DNA of 64,000 nt. Source: an uncultured delta proteobacterium (lineage in GTDB: Bacteria > Desulfobacterota > WTBG01 > CAIYCZ01 > CAIRTM01). Position numbers and translations under genes: made by a program. The notes below the pieces were generated by a model. The model had not been told where the DNA came from. It did not search any database and was given only the letters and a program-made list of their open reading frames with translations. Positions 6,198 to 10,088 of this stretch are shown piece after piece. Where the stretch lies: the NCBI GenBank assembly GCA_963718965.1, contig CAVRBJ010000027.1, forward strand, positions 73,360-137,359, in the 5' to 3' direction. Every line of letters begins with the position of its first letter. Within the stretch, counting starts at the first letter, position 1.

Positions 6198-6638
6198 ATG
6201 AGTGCTTTTGATCACGACGGCAATTTCGGGCATATGCTGGGGCGCACGTCGCGCGCCATGCTCAACATGCTGCAAAAAAAATTCCGGCAGGCAGGCTGCG
6301 ACATTACCGTGGAGCAGTGGACCCTGCTCATAAATATCCGCAATGCCGACAGCCGGTCGCAACAGCAGCTTGCCGAGCTGGTCTATCTGGACAAAACCAC
6401 CATAGCCCGGCTTGCAGCGGGGCTTGAAAAAAAAGGGCTTATCAGCCGCGAGTCCCACAGCGCCGACCGGCGGCAAAAGCTGCTGGTCATTACAGCGCAG
6501 GGTACGGCTGTGCTGGCAGTTTTAAAGCCCGTGGCCCTTGCGGCCCAGCAGCAGGTGCTGCAGGATCTGGATCCGAAAAAACTCAAGAGCTGCCGTGATG
6601 TTCTGCAGCGGGTTTACAGCACTATTCTCAGCCAGTAA
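6198..6638 (+). CDS. MarR-family transcriptional regulator
   Basis: 146-aa protein with a winged-helix core: ...ITVEQWTLLINI...SQQQLAELVYLDKTTIARLAAGLEKKGLISRESHSADRRQKLLVITAQG. Confidence 0.85.
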   Translation: MSAFDHDGNFGHMLGRTSRAMLNMLQKKFRQAGCDITVEQWTLLINIRNADSRSQQQLAELVYLDKTTIARLAAGLEKKGLISRESHSADRRQKLLVITAQGTAVLAVLKPVALAAQQQVLQDLDPKKLKSCRDVLQRVYSTILSQ

Positions 6639-6686
6639 CCTTATCACCGGCGCCGCCCCTTCGGCCCGACACACAGGAGAACAGAG

Positions 6687-8138
6687 ATGATTAAAAAAGT
6701 TGCAGCTAGCCTTGCCCTCATTATTGTCATTGCAATCGCCGGATTTTTCGGCATGTATAAATACGAAAACCGGCGGCTCAGCCCCGACTATTTTCAGTAC
6801 TATAAAACTCAAAATACTGTTCCCGAAGGCAAAGTGGGCGTTTTTGTCACCGGCCTTATAATTCCCGAGACGCCCGACCCGGTCTTTTTTTACAACATCC
6901 AGCAGAAAATCACCAGGAACATCATTCCCTGGCCGTTCAGGATTTTTGCAGGCATGGACAAGGGCGTCGCCCTGTTTGATCCGGAGCGGTACTGCGAGTT
7001 TACGGAATTTATCCCCAAGCAGCTGGTGAATGCCGAGGGCGGCGACAGGGATATCGACGGCGAGCCCTATATGGAAAAGTACCGGCGAGGCGAGGTTGTC
7101 TGGCAGCCCCCCGCGAAAATGCTTCACAAAGACACCAGCTATTTTGTGTACACAAAACGCAAGGGCGGCATGCCGAGCTTGGCTGGCAAAATGATCGGGA
7201 AGGCCCGGCTCTGGTACTATGACCGGGGCATTGTGCAGAAAAAAATACCGCACTGGAAGGGCACATTTGATGTCATCAATAAGGCCATGGCAGGTATTGA
7301 CAAAAAGTATCCCGGCGTCATGTGGCGCGCCGAATGCGGCATGTACTTCTACGGGATGAAACAAAAGATCCATGAGATGCTTGACGCAGGCTGCACGACA
7401 ATTGTACTTGCCGCGCCCATGGCCGTCTTTTCACATTTCGAGGAATTCGACTCAAGCTTCCGCCACTCCAGCGAATATATTGAAGAATGGGAAAAAGCCC
7501 ATCCGGGCAAAAAGATCAAAATCATCATGGCGCCGCCCATGGGAAAGTTCAAGCCTCTGCGGGAAGCCTACCTTGCCATGCTGAAAGACCGGCTTGACAC
7601 CCTGCCCAAAGGCGCCTCGGTTGCCGTTGCCGCAGCCGTGCACGGGCTGCCCTGGGACCAGCGCTCCTGGGAGGCCTGGATCGAAATGGCGCCCGAGTAT
7701 CGCGACCCCCTGCTCGGAGAAATCCAGAAGCTTGTAAGCGGCTACGGTTTTTCAAAGACCACGGTCATGAGCTGCCAGGATGAATTTGCCGACCCCGTGC
7801 GCGATCCGAAAGACAAGTACCTGTCAACCAACGAGGCCTACTGGAAAGCCATTCGCGAAGGCTACGAATATGTGATCTGCCTGCCCATAGAGTTTTTTGC
7901 CGAGAATACCGATACGTTATACTACCACGCTATTAAAAATTATGACGGCTTTGACGGCTACAATGTCTATGAACCCATCAGCTATCCGGACTGGTCCGTG
8001 CCCTATACGCGTGAGTTTGTGCAAGACAAAACCCATGTCATTTATAACGGCGTGCCCGTGGGCAAATACCAGCACTATGTCGTGGATGCGCTCTACAGCT
8101 CCATCGACTCGGTGCTCAAACAAGGTACGGGAAAATAA
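6687..8138 (+). CDS. N-terminally membrane-anchored class-II chelatase (ferrochelatase/HemH-fold) homologue with large insertions
   Basis: Intact 483-aa ORF with RBS AGGAGA. It has an N-terminal hydrophobic helix (AASLALIIVIAIAGFFGM). Segments align by eye to HemH: GVFVTGLIIPETPDPV, DAGCTTIVLAAPMAVFSHF, SVAVAAAVHGLPW (the HemH catalytic-His motif SAHxLP), and GYEYVICLPIEFFAENTDTLYY (the HemH GFVADHLEVLY region). Confidence 0.6.
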   Translation: MIKKVAASLALIIVIAIAGFFGMYKYENRRLSPDYFQYYKTQNTVPEGKVGVFVTGLIIPETPDPVFFYNIQQKITRNIIPWPFRIFAGMDKGVALFDPERYCEFTEFIPKQLVNAEGGDRDIDGEPYMEKYRRGEVVWQPPAKMLHKDTSYFVYTKRKGGMPSLAGKMIGKARLWYYDRGIVQKKIPHWKGTFDVINKAMAGIDKKYPGVMWRAECGMYFYGMKQKIHEMLDAGCTTIVLAAPMAVFSHFEEFDSSFRHSSEYIEEWEKAHPGKKIKIIMAPPMGKFKPLREAYLAMLKDRLDTLPKGASVAVAAAVHGLPWDQRSWEAWIEMAPEYRDPLLGEIQKLVSGYGFSKTTVMSCQDEFADPVRDPKDKYLSTNEAYWKAIREGYEYVICLPIEFFAENTDTLYYHAIKNYDGFDGYNVYEPISYPDWSVPYTREFVQDKTHVIYNGVPVGKYQHYVVDALYSSIDSVLKQGTGK

Positions 8139-8148
8139 GGAGAAAATC

Positions 8149-9123
8149 ATGCCAACAGCCAGCAAAATAACAATTTTTCAGGTTGACCCGGCTTTGTGCA
8201 CCGGCTGCGGGGCCTGCGCCGGGGCATGTCCCATGCACATTCTTGAAGTCAGAGACGGGCTGAGCGCCATGACCAAAAACCGCCTGTGCCTTGAATGCGG
8301 GGCCTGCATGCGGGCCTGCCCCCGTCATGCCATCAGCGTGGCAAAGGGCGATGGGGCTGACGCCGATGCCGGGACGGACCAGAAGGCGACAGATGCTCCC
8401 GTAATGTTTACCCATGTGCTTGACGCTGTGATGGCCATTGTCGAAAAGGAGATGGAACCCCGGCAGGTATTTTCCTATAACGGCATGGACATGTCGGACC
8501 TGAACGTCATAGAAACCAACGATGCGCAGGGGTTTGCGCGCTGCTACACCGCTGACAAACTTCTGAAAATGTATCAGTCCCGGTTCACCTTTTTCGGCCA
8601 GATGTGCGTGGATGTATTCGGACTTGTGCCCGCGCCCGAATACGACCTGCCCATCTTCATGTTCGACTGGTCCGAGTCCGACGACTCAATTTTCTATATC
8701 TGCGACTTCTACCCCACCGATGATCCCGGCAGAAACCAGAAGTATCTGGCCTCGTATTTATATGAGCCCCTTGACGAGCTGTATCAGGCCAGCAGCACGA
8801 TACCGGGGCTGCGGCCAGTTCCGCTGCACTGGGTGCGGGCCCTTAATTCTCCCTACATGATAACAGGCCATATCGAAAAAGAGCCCCGCGAAAATATCGG
8901 CAGGCTCTTCAACTCGACGCTCGACTATCTGCGGGCCTGGATCGGCCTGTGGAAGAAGGCCAGGCCCTGCGACATGCAGTCGCGGCATATGCAGCTTGTG
9001 GCAGAGCGGCGGGCCGTGCTGCACGACCTCTATCTTGAAAATGATCCCGGCATCGGCTCCATCAATAAGTTCATCGGCGAAGAAAAAGGTGCGCGCGTGC
9101 TAAAACTCATACTACCGGAATAA
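8149..9123 (+). CDS. Fusion of a 2x[4Fe-4S] ferredoxin domain to a ferredoxin-dependent bilin reductase (FDBR/PcyA-family)-like domain
   Basis: The ATG at 8149 is preceded by AAGGAG. The longer track ORF from 7897 overlaps the previous gene. The N-terminus has CTGCGACAGACP and CLECGACMRACP. The C-terminal 250 aa carry FDBR-like blocks: RCY...KM..., VPAPEYDLPIFMFDW(6)FYICDFYPT (PcyA: FPEPLYGLPLFGCDIV...AIADLSPT), and a C-terminal ENDPGIGSINKFIGEEKGARVLKLIL (PcyA: [22 protein letters not shown]). Confidence 0.6.
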   Translation: MPTASKITIFQVDPALCTGCGACAGACPMHILEVRDGLSAMTKNRLCLECGACMRACPRHAISVAKGDGADADAGTDQKATDAPVMFTHVLDAVMAIVEKEMEPRQVFSYNGMDMSDLNVIETNDAQGFARCYTADKLLKMYQSRFTFFGQMCVDVFGLVPAPEYDLPIFMFDWSESDDSIFYICDFYPTDDPGRNQKYLASYLYEPLDELYQASSTIPGLRPVPLHWVRALNSPYMITGHIEKEPRENIGRLFNSTLDYLRAWIGLWKKARPCDMQSRHMQLVAERRAVLHDLYLENDPGIGSINKFIGEEKGARVLKLILPE

Positions 9124-9137
9124 AGGGAGAAATCATC

Positions 9138-10088
9138 ATGAAAACCGCAGAAATAGCTTTTTTGCCTGAAGCTGCAGACATGCTCGAAAAAATAGCCGCC
9201 ATCTGGCCGCCTATCATACGGCAGGGCAAAAAAGATAAAATTCTTTTCATGCTCAGCCTGCTTGCCCGCGCCAGAAAGATTAAAAAAGCCGACGCCGCCC
9301 TTGTTATCGAGGCCACGCGCCTGGTTGTGCCTAAGTCCTATGACCCTCTGTTTCATATGTTTGAGGACATGGAGGGGTTTAAGAAGCGCATGCTTGATCC
9401 CTTTGTGAGCGAAGCGGCGTACAACAAAATCCCTGTGAAGGTCAGGCGCTGGCCCACCCCCCGGCCGCGCAATAAAGCGGCTGCCAAACAGGCGAAAACT
9501 ATTCTTGCCGTCTGCGCAAGCCCGCGAGCCCGTGGCAATACCGATATGCTCATCGACGAGGCACTGCGCGGCGCAGCAGATGCCGGCGCGCGCACGGAAA
9601 AGATCATGCTCCACAAAATCAAGATGGGCTACTGCATCGGCTGTCGCAAATGCAAGGAGCCGGACTATGAAAAAATCTGCGTCATAAATGACGACATGGC
9701 AGATGTTTATCAAAAAATCATCGCAGCCGATGCCCTGATAATAGGATTCCCCATCTACACGGGCCGAGAATGCGCGCAGCTTTCGACATTTCTTGACCGC
9801 TGGGACGGCTATGAGCGCTACATGCTCAGCTCGCTGCTCAAGCCGGGCAGAACCGCTATGGTAATCGGCACCTGGGGCTATCCCTGCATCGACACCTATG
9901 ACCACGTGATTGAAAACATCATCTCCATTCTGAACCTGCACAAGGTCAAAACAATCGAGGCCCTGTCGGCCTGCGGATTTGAAGGTATGCGGCACGGCCT
10001 TGATGATCAGCGGCAAGGGGTCATTGCCCGCCATCCGAAAGAGCTCAAAAAAGCGTGTGACGCCGGCCGGGCCCTGGCCTGCAGCTAG
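9138..10088 (+). CDS. Flavodoxin-fold NADPH-dependent FMN reductase / iron-sulfur-flavoprotein-like protein with a roughly 110-aa N-terminal extension
   Basis: The core runs ILAVCASPRARGNTDMLIDEAL...YCIGCRKCKEP...ADALIIGFPIYTGRECAQL, typical of the FMN_red/Isf family. The gene starts 14 nt after the previous stop. Confidence 0.7.
   Translation: MKTAEIAFLPEAADMLEKIAAIWPPIIRQGKKDKILFMLSLLARARKIKKADAALVIEATRLVVPKSYDPLFHMFEDMEGFKKRMLDPFVSEAAYNKIPVKVRRWPTPRPRNKAAAKQAKTILAVCASPRARGNTDMLIDEALRGAADAGARTEKIMLHKIKMGYCIGCRKCKEPDYEKICVINDDMADVYQKIIAADALIIGFPIYTGRECAQLSTFLDRWDGYERYMLSSLLKPGRTAMVIGTWGYPCIDTYDHVIENIISILNLHKVKTIEALSACGFEGMRHGLDDQRQGVIARHPKELKKACDAGRALACS

Follow-up and report, generated by a model that had tools for sequence, protein, structure and literature searches.

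A membrane-anchored, HemH-like chelatase-fold family encoded beside bilin-reductase-fold and flavin reductases in uncultured Thermodesulfobacteriota

The window analysed here is a 64,000-nucleotide stretch of DNA (contig CAVRBJ010000027.1, positions 73,360 to 137,359) from an uncultured sulfate-reducer-type bacterium, and within it a gene for a membrane-anchored protein of predicted ferrochelatase fold stands between a MarR-family regulator gene and the genes of two redox proteins, a ferredoxin fused to a ferredoxin-dependent bilin reductase (FDBR)-like domain and an FMN reductase (Table 1). The chelatase-fold gene has an AGGAG Shine-Dalgarno sequence 8 nt 5' of its ATG; its TAA stop (8136-8138) is directly followed by GGAG and, after a gap of 7 nt, by the ATG of the ferredoxin::FDBR-like gene at 8146, and the FMN reductase gene begins 14 nt 3' of the latter. 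Gaps this short suggest that the three genes are co-transcribed, and the chelatase-fold gene would be translationally coupled to the two that follow it. A functional tie to the downstream redox proteins had been proposed in a first-pass annotation made from the sequence; the tight coupling agrees with it, and other genomes show the family next to FDBR-like and flavin reductase genes again, in several different gene orders. Neither a match to the sigma-70 consensus nor a convincing operator palindrome was found in the region 5' of marR, and upstream of the operon, on the opposite strand, lies a gene for a tungsten-type aldehyde:ferredoxin oxidoreductase (AOR). A search of 5.8 billion clustered proteins returned 366 homologues, which among the 120 matches listed are 447-509 aa long and, the window's own protein excluded, 55-89% identical to it. 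Judged by this same-length homologue set the chelatase-fold gene is clearly real and under selection, and the long antisense open reading frames (ORFs) at 6522-7373 and 9030-10034 are presumably by-products of the coding strand.

Standard sequence profiles detect the protein below their thresholds. It scores 18.6 bits against PF00762 (cut-off 27) and 15.2 bits against TIGR00109 (cut-off 124.6), and the chelatase-family profile match that was to be looked for is thus present but falls under the cut-off. Some family members are auto-labelled 'protoheme ferro-lyase' by JGI pipelines, and a literature search found no description of the family. There was no match to PF01903 (CbiX) or PF06180 (CbiK) at E<=1, nor any Pfam match to the class I CobN/ChlH chelatases, whose fold is different. 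As neither phmmer nor a family-profile search found anything among the PDB sequences, the fold had to come from structure prediction. An AlphaFold2 model built with a 39-sequence alignment (pLDDT 92.6, pTM 0.91) was compared with the PDB by Foldseek, and the first 44 matches were all ferrochelatases (probability 1.00, TM on target 0.61-0.75); the best was B. subtilis 1ak1 (E 8e-11), the B. subtilis, human, yeast and Listeria enzymes together spanning E 8e-11 to 1e-6, with TM on target of 0.61-0.70 for human ferrochelatase and up to 0.75 for Listeria CpfC. FetB, SirB and CbiK ranked below all of the ferrochelatases, at E ~1e-5. Profile-profile alignment by hhalign against nine canonical HemH proteins from genomes of the same phylum gave a probability of 96.4% with the close family alignment and of 98.6% (E 6e-16) with a broad alignment extending down to 19% identity, aa 170-413 being laid on HemH 56-278. 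The ferrochelatase fold claimed at the outset is therefore borne out by AlphaFold2, Foldseek and hhalign alike, and in the comparison with HemH, CbiK, CbiX and SirB it is HemH/CpfC that comes first; the protein can be taken as shown to be an enzyme of class II chelatase fold that derives from HemH. Its sub-cut-off scores, transmembrane (TM) anchor, large inserts and the change of Glu to Asp at the catalytic acid support its standing as a non-canonical HemH.

The two motifs first picked out as HemH-like, AAAVHGLPW and FFAENTDTLYY (aa 403-413, nt 7893-7925), are placed by hhalign on the HemH blocks SAHxLP and SDHxETLY. H319 corresponds to human H263, the catalytic, metal-binding His of ferrochelatase, and D409 to human E343 (numbering from an alignment of canonical HemH to PDB chains), so that the catalytic Glu is replaced by an invariant Asp; E406 and N407 fall on human D340 and H341. 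The acidic helix PIEFFAENTDTLYYH thus retains its acidic character but not the exact HemH residues (D340, H341 and E343). We take the B. subtilis equivalents of H319 and D409 to be H183 and E264. The Pro of GGxSPL, the Asp of GDPY and the Gln of QS have their equivalents in P188, E329 and Q364. H319 is invariant in both the close (A1) and the broad (A3) alignments and D409 in the latter, in which the only invariant positions are P81, D91, L96, D98, L113, P188, H319, G320 and D409; as both residues are among these nine, the His/acid pair is the most conserved feature of the family. A [2Fe-2S] site is ruled out, no Cys being invariant across the broad alignment.

Conservation of this kind bears on whether the protein is an enzyme at all. 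A non-catalytic membrane carrier of tetrapyrrole or heme, presenting substrate to the reductases, would have models in FetB of P. gingivalis and the periplasmic CbiK of D. vulgaris, which are understood as chelatase folds reused for binding and are among the Foldseek matches, and the varied partner sets of the family would suit a generic delivery module. We nevertheless regard a carrier as very unlikely: the His and the acid at the Glu position are invariant family-wide, E329, Q364 and E406 match further HemH signature positions, and HemH/CpfC match far better than FetB/CbiK (E 1e-10 against 1e-5).

The segment VAASLALIIVIAIAGFFGMY is the sole hydrophobic segment of the protein, as had been claimed, and forms a helix (2-27) in the model. 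Directly C-terminal of it lies a conserved basic patch, YKYxNRR (here YKYKNRR), and a charge count over 117 family members gave ~1 K/R in the ~3 residues before the helix and 3.7 K/R in the next 15. Under the positive-inside rule these counts make it most likely that the catalytic domain is cytoplasmic (N-out/C-in), at the face of the cytoplasmic membrane, and the signal-less ferredoxin::FDBR and FMN reductase partners fit with this. Canonical HemH of the same phylum measures 321-333 aa; the protein is indeed much enlarged, though by ~150-160 aa rather than the 170 or so first estimated. From the model and the hhalign alignment we place this extra length in the TM helix and its linker (~45 aa), a family-specific insert of ~70 aa, a lengthened inter-domain helix (model helix 250-271) and ~20 aa beyond the acidic helix. 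The insert follows the first beta-alpha unit and precedes the GGxSPL-equivalent loop; nothing in HemH aligns with its model elements H128-133, E137-140 and E152-155, and P110, G135, W139, P142, D149 and F153 are invariant within it. In HemH the region matching the insert site is the membrane-facing lip of the active-site mouth.

Table 1. Features of the operon, further family copies in the same genome, and recurrent neighbours and gene orders at 58 family loci. Coordinates without a prefix are window positions; C-numbers are contigs of the window's own genome and L-numbers (in the text) loci.
Feature	Position or occurrence	Strand	Basis or remark
MarR-family regulator, operon's first gene	6198..6638	+	PF01047 53 bits; 48 nt 5' of chelatase-fold gene
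483-aa membrane-anchored ferrochelatase-fold protein (ORF)	6687..8138	+	ORF, AlphaFold2, Foldseek, hhalign, 366 homologues
Single N-terminal TM helix VAASLALIIVIAIAGFFGMY, aa 5-24	6699..6758	+	sequence; model helix 2-27
Family-specific insert, ~70 aa, aa ~98-165, N-terminal domain, strongly conserved	6978..7181	+	HemH 56-71 aligned to aa 170-188
His motif AAAVHGLPW, aa 315-323	7629..7655	+	hhalign onto HemH block SAHxLP
Acidic helix PIEFFAENTDTLYYH	7884..7928	+	hhalign and PDB alignment
2x[4Fe-4S] ferredoxin fused to FDBR-like (bilin-reductase-fold) domain	8146..9123	+	PF00037 47 bits; PF05996 41.2 bits (cut-off 31)
FMN-reductase/flavodoxin-fold protein, operon's last gene	9138..10088	+	PF03358 62.6 bits at aa 122-223
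Family copy 2	C13:40356-41685		59-61% identical, in two frames
Family copy 3, 493 aa	C29:77563-79044		27% identical; PF00762 30.9 bits
FDBR-like	16/58 loci		13/17 with measurable distance within 2.5 kb
FAD_binding_3 (GGR-like) reductase	17/58 loci
Flavodoxin_4/5	12/58 loci
PNPOx-like	11/58 loci
FMN_red	7/58 loci
MarR/TetR/PadR regulators	15/58 loci
MMPL/DUF1302/DUF1329/BNR envelope set	7/58 loci
HemF-like	3/58 loci		PF01218, 42 bits
Gene order (a)			regulator, chelatase-fold gene, (Fd-)FDBR, FMN reductase
Gene order (b)			BNR-MMPL-DUF1302-DUF1329, hydrolase, chelatase-fold gene, flavodoxin-like, FDBR, two Tat-signal proteins, PNPOx, FAD reductase
Gene order (c)			chelatase-fold gene, PadR, three unknown proteins, NuoE/F-like, FeS protein, FAD reductase
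Gene order (d)			FAD reductase, PNPOx, thiolase, chelatase-fold gene, TetR, FDBR, SDR, GlcD/CCG-type proteins
Gene order (e)			chelatase-fold gene paired with flavodoxin-like genes

An analysis of the neighbouring genes was carried out by calling and clustering ORFs in 58 loci, with counts made per locus and FDBR-like neighbours confirmed with a hidden Markov model of the domain alone. At least one flavin or FDBR-like partner was found in 35 of the loci, in at least five gene orders (Table 1); by chance an FDBR-like gene would be expected in ~2 of them, an estimate based on ~12 such genes per 3.6 Mb. CbiX-like and NifH/NifDK(PCP_red)-like genes are also among the neighbours, as are genes for alpha/beta hydrolases, thiolases and SDR proteins. 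A regulator homologous to the window's MarR (cluster c46) holds the same position in locus L021. The FMN reductase carries an N-terminal extension of ~115 aa (window 9138-9500), which is conserved in L021, L022 and a paralogue on C34, the last likewise adjoining an FDBR-like gene; the extension has no Pfam match even at E<=10, and a PCP_red-like domain within it was dropped as a candidate, PCP_red not being matched even at that level.

Other chelatase- and porphyrin-related genes were met in these surroundings. A second family of 530-670 aa, with lipoprotein-like N-termini and weak ferrochelatase similarity (PF00762 21 bits), has members at L010 (C30:981-4145), C38:1851-3449, C13:15319-17205 and L029:3190-5028, and the C30 gene directly adjoins two FDBR-like genes. 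By hhalign its match to HemH reaches 80.6%, with the His kept and Leu at the Glu position, so that its link to chelatases is tentative; an AlphaFold2 model of the secreted ~610-670-aa C30 protein had a pLDDT of 50 and was set aside unused. Proteins of ~250 aa in these anaerobes match the oxygen-dependent coproporphyrinogen oxidase family PF01218 (42 bits against a cut-off of 31.8); those at L071:15034-16597 immediately adjoin an FDBR-like gene, and one at C29:1013-1759 sits ~2 kb from such a gene.

In one organism group the family gene belongs to a different kind of cluster (L002, L003 and L037), together with two NifH-like genes, two Oxidored_nitro genes (one with PCP_red), two ferrochelatase/CbiX-like genes, a ferredoxin gene and FAD and FMN reductase genes. 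At L002:1-11285 and L003:1-11171 the Fer4_NifH and Oxidored_nitro genes, one of the latter with the PCP_red domain of protochlorophyllide reductase B, accompany a 479-aa family member. A counterpart in the window's own genome (L005, C18:57571-61350, continuing to C18:64371) has NifH-like and NifD/K-like ORFs, as read from their N-termini, and adjoins a gene for a 403-aa protein with N-terminal hydrophobic segments that scores 41 bits for CbiX and 37 bits for ferrochelatase. Such clusters raise the idea that the family is a chelatase which cooperates with nitrogenase-like (DPOR/CfbCD-like) reductases and with CbiX-type chelatases in the biosynthesis of some modified tetrapyrrole cofactor as yet unknown; both the L002/L003/L037 cluster, with its family gene, and the same combination of NifH/NifDK-like and TM-CbiX/HemH-like genes on C18 speak for it. 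We hold it to be improbable, since this is the context of one paralogue in one organism group (three loci on two contigs), the C18 cluster adjoins no family member, and the many paralogues, repressor-type regulators, hydrolases and transporters suit substrate-induced pathways better than cofactor synthesis.

The same neighbours could also be read as pointing away from tetrapyrroles altogether, with the fold recruited for some other substrate, for example a hydrophobic isoprenoid or lipid of the neighbouring transporter and reductases. Seven loci contain the MMPL/DUF1302/DUF1329/BNR set, which published papers link with a monoterpene efflux transporter as well as with fatty-acid/alcohol metabolism; GGR-like FAD reductases, thiolases and SDR proteins are frequent neighbours, and the neighbours are all uncharacterised. 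Set against this are several independent tetrapyrrole-type folds nearby (FDBR, HemF-like, CbiX, flavodoxin_5 and PCP_red), and the characterised class II chelatase-fold proteins are not known to include one that does not bind a tetrapyrrole. We therefore give a non-tetrapyrrole substrate only a small chance. The flavodoxin_5 domain we take to be the HemG family.

The family is small, and nearly all of its members come from uncultured Thermodesulfobacteriota. When 1.84 billion representatives were searched with a profile, the 159 proteins returned at E<=1e-3 all belonged to the family itself, many being fragments, with no canonical HemH and no bridging sequence among them. In 185,579 species genomes 55 loci were detected, several genomes providing more than one, and nearly all came from Thermodesulfobacteriota or 'delta proteobacterium' metagenome-assembled genomes (MAGs) of lakes, sediments and soils; the outliers were one Schekmanbacteria MAG, one Spirochaetota single-amplified genome and one gammaproteobacterial MAG. 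Among a set of 41 relatives (the window's own genome, G000, with G035 and G061-G099; f-numbers denote families) it is present in 32, with 16/16 genomes of f1, 4/4 of f2, 10/10 of f52 and 1/1 of f53, and was not found in f51 (0/8) or f54 (0/1). Positive genomes have 1-9 matches, some of which are fragments of split genes.

The own genome holds three family copies including the window gene (Table 1). Many of its genes are split into two or three frames, among them the C13 paralogue (L012, C13:39679-43029), MMPL, DUF1302, the AOR on C29 and HemL, a pattern more in keeping with indel errors in the assembly than with true pseudogenes, and the two-frame state of the C13 copy is probably such an error. 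The C29 paralogue (L007, C29:76585-80049, continuing to C29:75613) is followed by three flavodoxin-like genes, all with signal-peptide-like hydrophobic N-termini, which suggests that they encode exported flavodoxin-fold proteins. The charge pattern around its helix is opposite to that of the window protein and, together with these apparently signal-bearing neighbours, indicates that this paralogue may face the periplasm. The question of whether the window gene is the only ferrochelatase-like gene of its genome can be answered in the negative, as there are at least six divergent chelatase-like genes besides a CbiK-like gene in a cobalamin cluster.

The occurrence of the family runs parallel to that of FDBR-like genes and opposite to that of canonical heme genes. 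Of the 41 relatives, 31 have FDBR-like genes, with 5-19 matches each; these genomes fall in the four families in which the chelatase-fold family also occurs (with the exception of G068), and FDBR-like genes were found in 0/9 of the family-negative genomes; the own 3.6-Mb genome, that of a non-phototroph, has 12 PF05996 matches over the cut-off (examples are loci L013-L020, L013 being C34:38678-42349). Canonical HemH (208-298 bits) adjoining HemE occurs in 8/9 family-negative and 0/32 family-positive genomes, and an AhbD match in 8/9 and 9/32, respectively. The window's own family, with 17 genomes searched (the own genome and 16 family-mates), gave no hemE match at all, and no family-positive genome gave a full-scoring one, the best reaching 300 bits against 427-451 in the negatives. 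The restriction of the family to a clade without canonical HemE/HemH is thus shown by these counts. G065, a 100% complete relative, is likewise without HemE, AhbD and canonical HemH.

The search of the full genome for a canonical hemH or the ahb pathway, one of the checks that had been proposed, found neither canonical HemH (the best PF00762 match, 36 bits, is in a TM-CbiX-like protein) nor AhbD, heme oxygenase or HutW/ChuW over the cut-off, in a genome which is 79% complete and whose gene absences are therefore not proven. HutW/ChuW was not found over the cut-off in four good relatives either, and a known ring-opening step, aerobic or anaerobic, was set aside, there being no heme oxygenase or HutW/ChuW over the cut-off. 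HemB is present, ORFs with N-termini resembling HemA, HemC, CobA/HemD and HemL were read by eye, and there are AhbAB-like, SirC-like and CbiK-like genes, the last inside the cobalamin cluster. Of the radical-SAM (AhbC/D-type) gene that lies between the AhbAB-like and SirC-like genes (C37:88331-90290), no more than the N-terminal 96 aa remain; two relatives, G075 and G061, were found to have full AhbD and AhbC-like genes. The lineage of the window may be in the course of losing its heme branch, and the same genome encodes many cytochromes of the multiheme type, the richest with 15 CXXCH motifs.

Such a pattern invites the main rival to our reading, namely that this clade uses the family as the ferrochelatase of its own heme synthesis, a much-diverged descendant of HemH/CpfC or SirB, or a replacement for it, that would insert Fe2+ in a heme route unlike the three known. 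Canonical HemH, found beside hemE in eight of the nine negatives, is missing from all 32 positives; AhbD falls from 8/9 to 9/32; the own genome combines many multiheme cytochromes and HemA/B/C/L with only the 96-aa radical-SAM stump by its AhbAB-like gene; every searched genome of f1, f2 and f52 has the family; and the catalytic His and acid are conserved. The details fit less well. There are 1-9 matches per genome (some of them split fragments), they stand in different operons that each have a separate ligand-type regulator, and in the loci examined the family is never beside hemA/B/C/L. With no full-scoring hemE in the positives, copro- and protoporphyrin would not be made by known routes, nine positives retain an AhbD match, and sirohydrochlorin chelation is already covered by the CbiK-like and SirC-like genes. 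On balance we consider a biosynthetic role unlikely. The earlier statement that this is not the housekeeping ferrochelatase holds in that the protein is a non-canonical HemH; beyond that it is probable rather than certain, no canonical hemH, hemE or AhbD having been found in the 79%-complete genome.

The reading that we favour, tentatively and with something short of even confidence, is that of a membrane-face metal chelatase or dechelatase acting on an exogenous hydrophobic tetrapyrrole and feeding the reductases encoded beside it. The single N-terminal helix would hold a chelatase-fold enzyme at the cytoplasmic membrane, where the His/acid pair, as in ferrochelatases, would insert a divalent metal into a distorted porphyrin or take it out; the enzyme would metalate or, more likely, demetalate an imported hydrophobic cyclic tetrapyrrole (heme-, chlorophyll- or porphyrin-derived), and the product would be handed to the co-translated ferredoxin::FDBR-like reductase. 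The FMN reductase could give electrons, for example for the reduction of Fe(III) before its release, or feed the reductase, and the system would be switched on through ligand-sensing MarR/TetR/PadR-type regulators.

To our knowledge every characterised class II chelatase-fold protein binds a tetrapyrrole. We infer that the ligand is a cyclic tetrapyrrole from this, from the single fold shared by FDBR, RCCR and CPOX (PMC10151467), and from the FDBR point variants that bind heme and protoporphyrin IX (PMC13446030). FDBR-like sequences of Schekmanbacteria have been placed in the RCCR outgroup, with no chelatase partner mentioned (Rockwell et al.). The substrate is probably exogenous and hydrophobic, because hemE is lacking and the operons contain transporters, hydrolases and ligand-type repressors; as the 17 genomes of the window's own family have no hemE match, no endogenous porphyrin substrate is expected there. 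As to the direction of the reaction, ferrochelatases catalyse the dechelatase reaction in the opposite sense (PMC12583661), and we lean slightly towards removal of metal over insertion, since the operons look catabolic or salvage-like and HmuS, the only described anaerobic dechelatase, needs a reductant. Anaerobic heme dechelation by HmuS requires a reductant for which flavodoxin is the suspected electron donor (PMC12583661), and a similar need here would explain the constant flavodoxin-fold partners.

A number of observations count against this reading of a membrane-face (de)chelatase. Its tie to tetrapyrroles comes from fold families alone, and the system is known here from sequence and model. 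The catalytic Glu is an Asp, the His341 of HemH is an Asn, and the MRYWHP block, which holds distal HemH residues, is not conserved. No listed redox partner lies within 8 kb in 23 of the 58 loci, nine of these 23 being shorter than 7 kb, and neither a metal transporter nor a heme receptor is among the conserved neighbours. Some partners (flavodoxin-like proteins, c23 with Tat signals, and lipoproteins) look exported, at odds with a catalytic domain that the charge rule places in the cytoplasm. The genomes behind the co-occurrence counts, finally, are related to one another, so that as few as one or two evolutionary events may underlie the pattern, which does not amount to statistical proof.

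Should the reading hold, it would bear on how strict sediment anaerobes handle a large flux of heme and (bacterio)chlorophyll derivatives. In the routes described, heme oxygenase breaks heme down aerobically, with FDBRs acting next where bilins are made, ChuW opens the ring anaerobically, and HmuS takes out the iron. Here bilin-reductase-fold genes are expanded (5-19 matches per genome), and a HemH-derived family with a conserved catalytic pair is tied to them both physically and phyletically. This suggests that heme- or chlorophyll-like molecules are handled without oxygen in a manner not yet described, and the family and its partners are clonable candidates for an oxygen-free tetrapyrrole pathway. 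A broader proposal, which we put forward as doubtful, would place the family, as the metal-handling enzyme, at the entry to an oxygen-independent pathway in Thermodesulfobacteriota of sediment and hypolimnion: heme- or chlorophyll-derived cyclic tetrapyrroles would be imported, stripped of their metal or given another at the inner membrane, and then reduced and remodelled by an extensive complement of FDBR/CPOX-fold, flavodoxin-fold and flavin reductases, serving either the salvage of heme by lineages losing its de novo synthesis or the use of pigments as carbon, iron or electron sinks. If true, it would be a biological counterpart to steps so far treated as abiotic pigment diagenesis. The occurrence of cytochrome-rich bacteria without canonical hemE/hemH also raises the question of where their heme comes from.

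Of the known systems HemH/CpfC (PF00762) is the closest in structure: the window protein shares its two-domain Rossmann-like fold, has it as best Foldseek match and as a 98.6% profile-profile match, and retains a catalytic His in xHGxP, an acidic helix PIxFxxExxDTL and equivalents of the GGxSPL Pro, the GDPY acid and the QS Gln. It is unlike HemH/CpfC in its ~14% identity and scores under the Pfam and TIGRFAM cut-offs, and the family differs in its TM anchor, ~70-aa N-domain insert and further inserts, in the changes Glu to Asp, Asp to Glu and His to Asn in the acidic helix, and in the loss of a conserved MRYWHP block. The genes also keep different company, HemH/CpfC being usually a single copy in a heme-pathway context (hemE with hemY/G/N or cpfC/chdC), whereas the window family lies beside reductases and regulators in several paralogues.

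FetB of P. gingivalis and the periplasmic CbiK of Desulfovibrio vulgaris, extracytoplasmic or envelope-located as secreted proteins or lipoproteins, are likewise class II chelatase folds of anaerobes and appear among the structural matches; the match is much weaker (E ~1e-5, TM on target ~0.5), the window protein is predicted to be N-out/C-in, and the window family conserves a HemH-type His/acid pair. SirB, CbiX, CbiK and CfbA belong to the same superfamily and CbiX-like neighbours occur in some loci, but Foldseek gives only E ~1e-5 and the genome already has a CbiK-like gene in its cobalamin cluster. A possible analogue in function is HmuS of Bacteroidota. HmuS has an unrelated, CobN/ChlH-type fold, is 1469 aa long and belongs to the hmu heme-uptake operon (PMC12583661), whereas the window family is known from genes and a model; yet it too is a membrane protein of an anaerobe that belongs to a chelatase family, and it removes Fe(II) from heme while leaving the ring unopened (PMC12583661).

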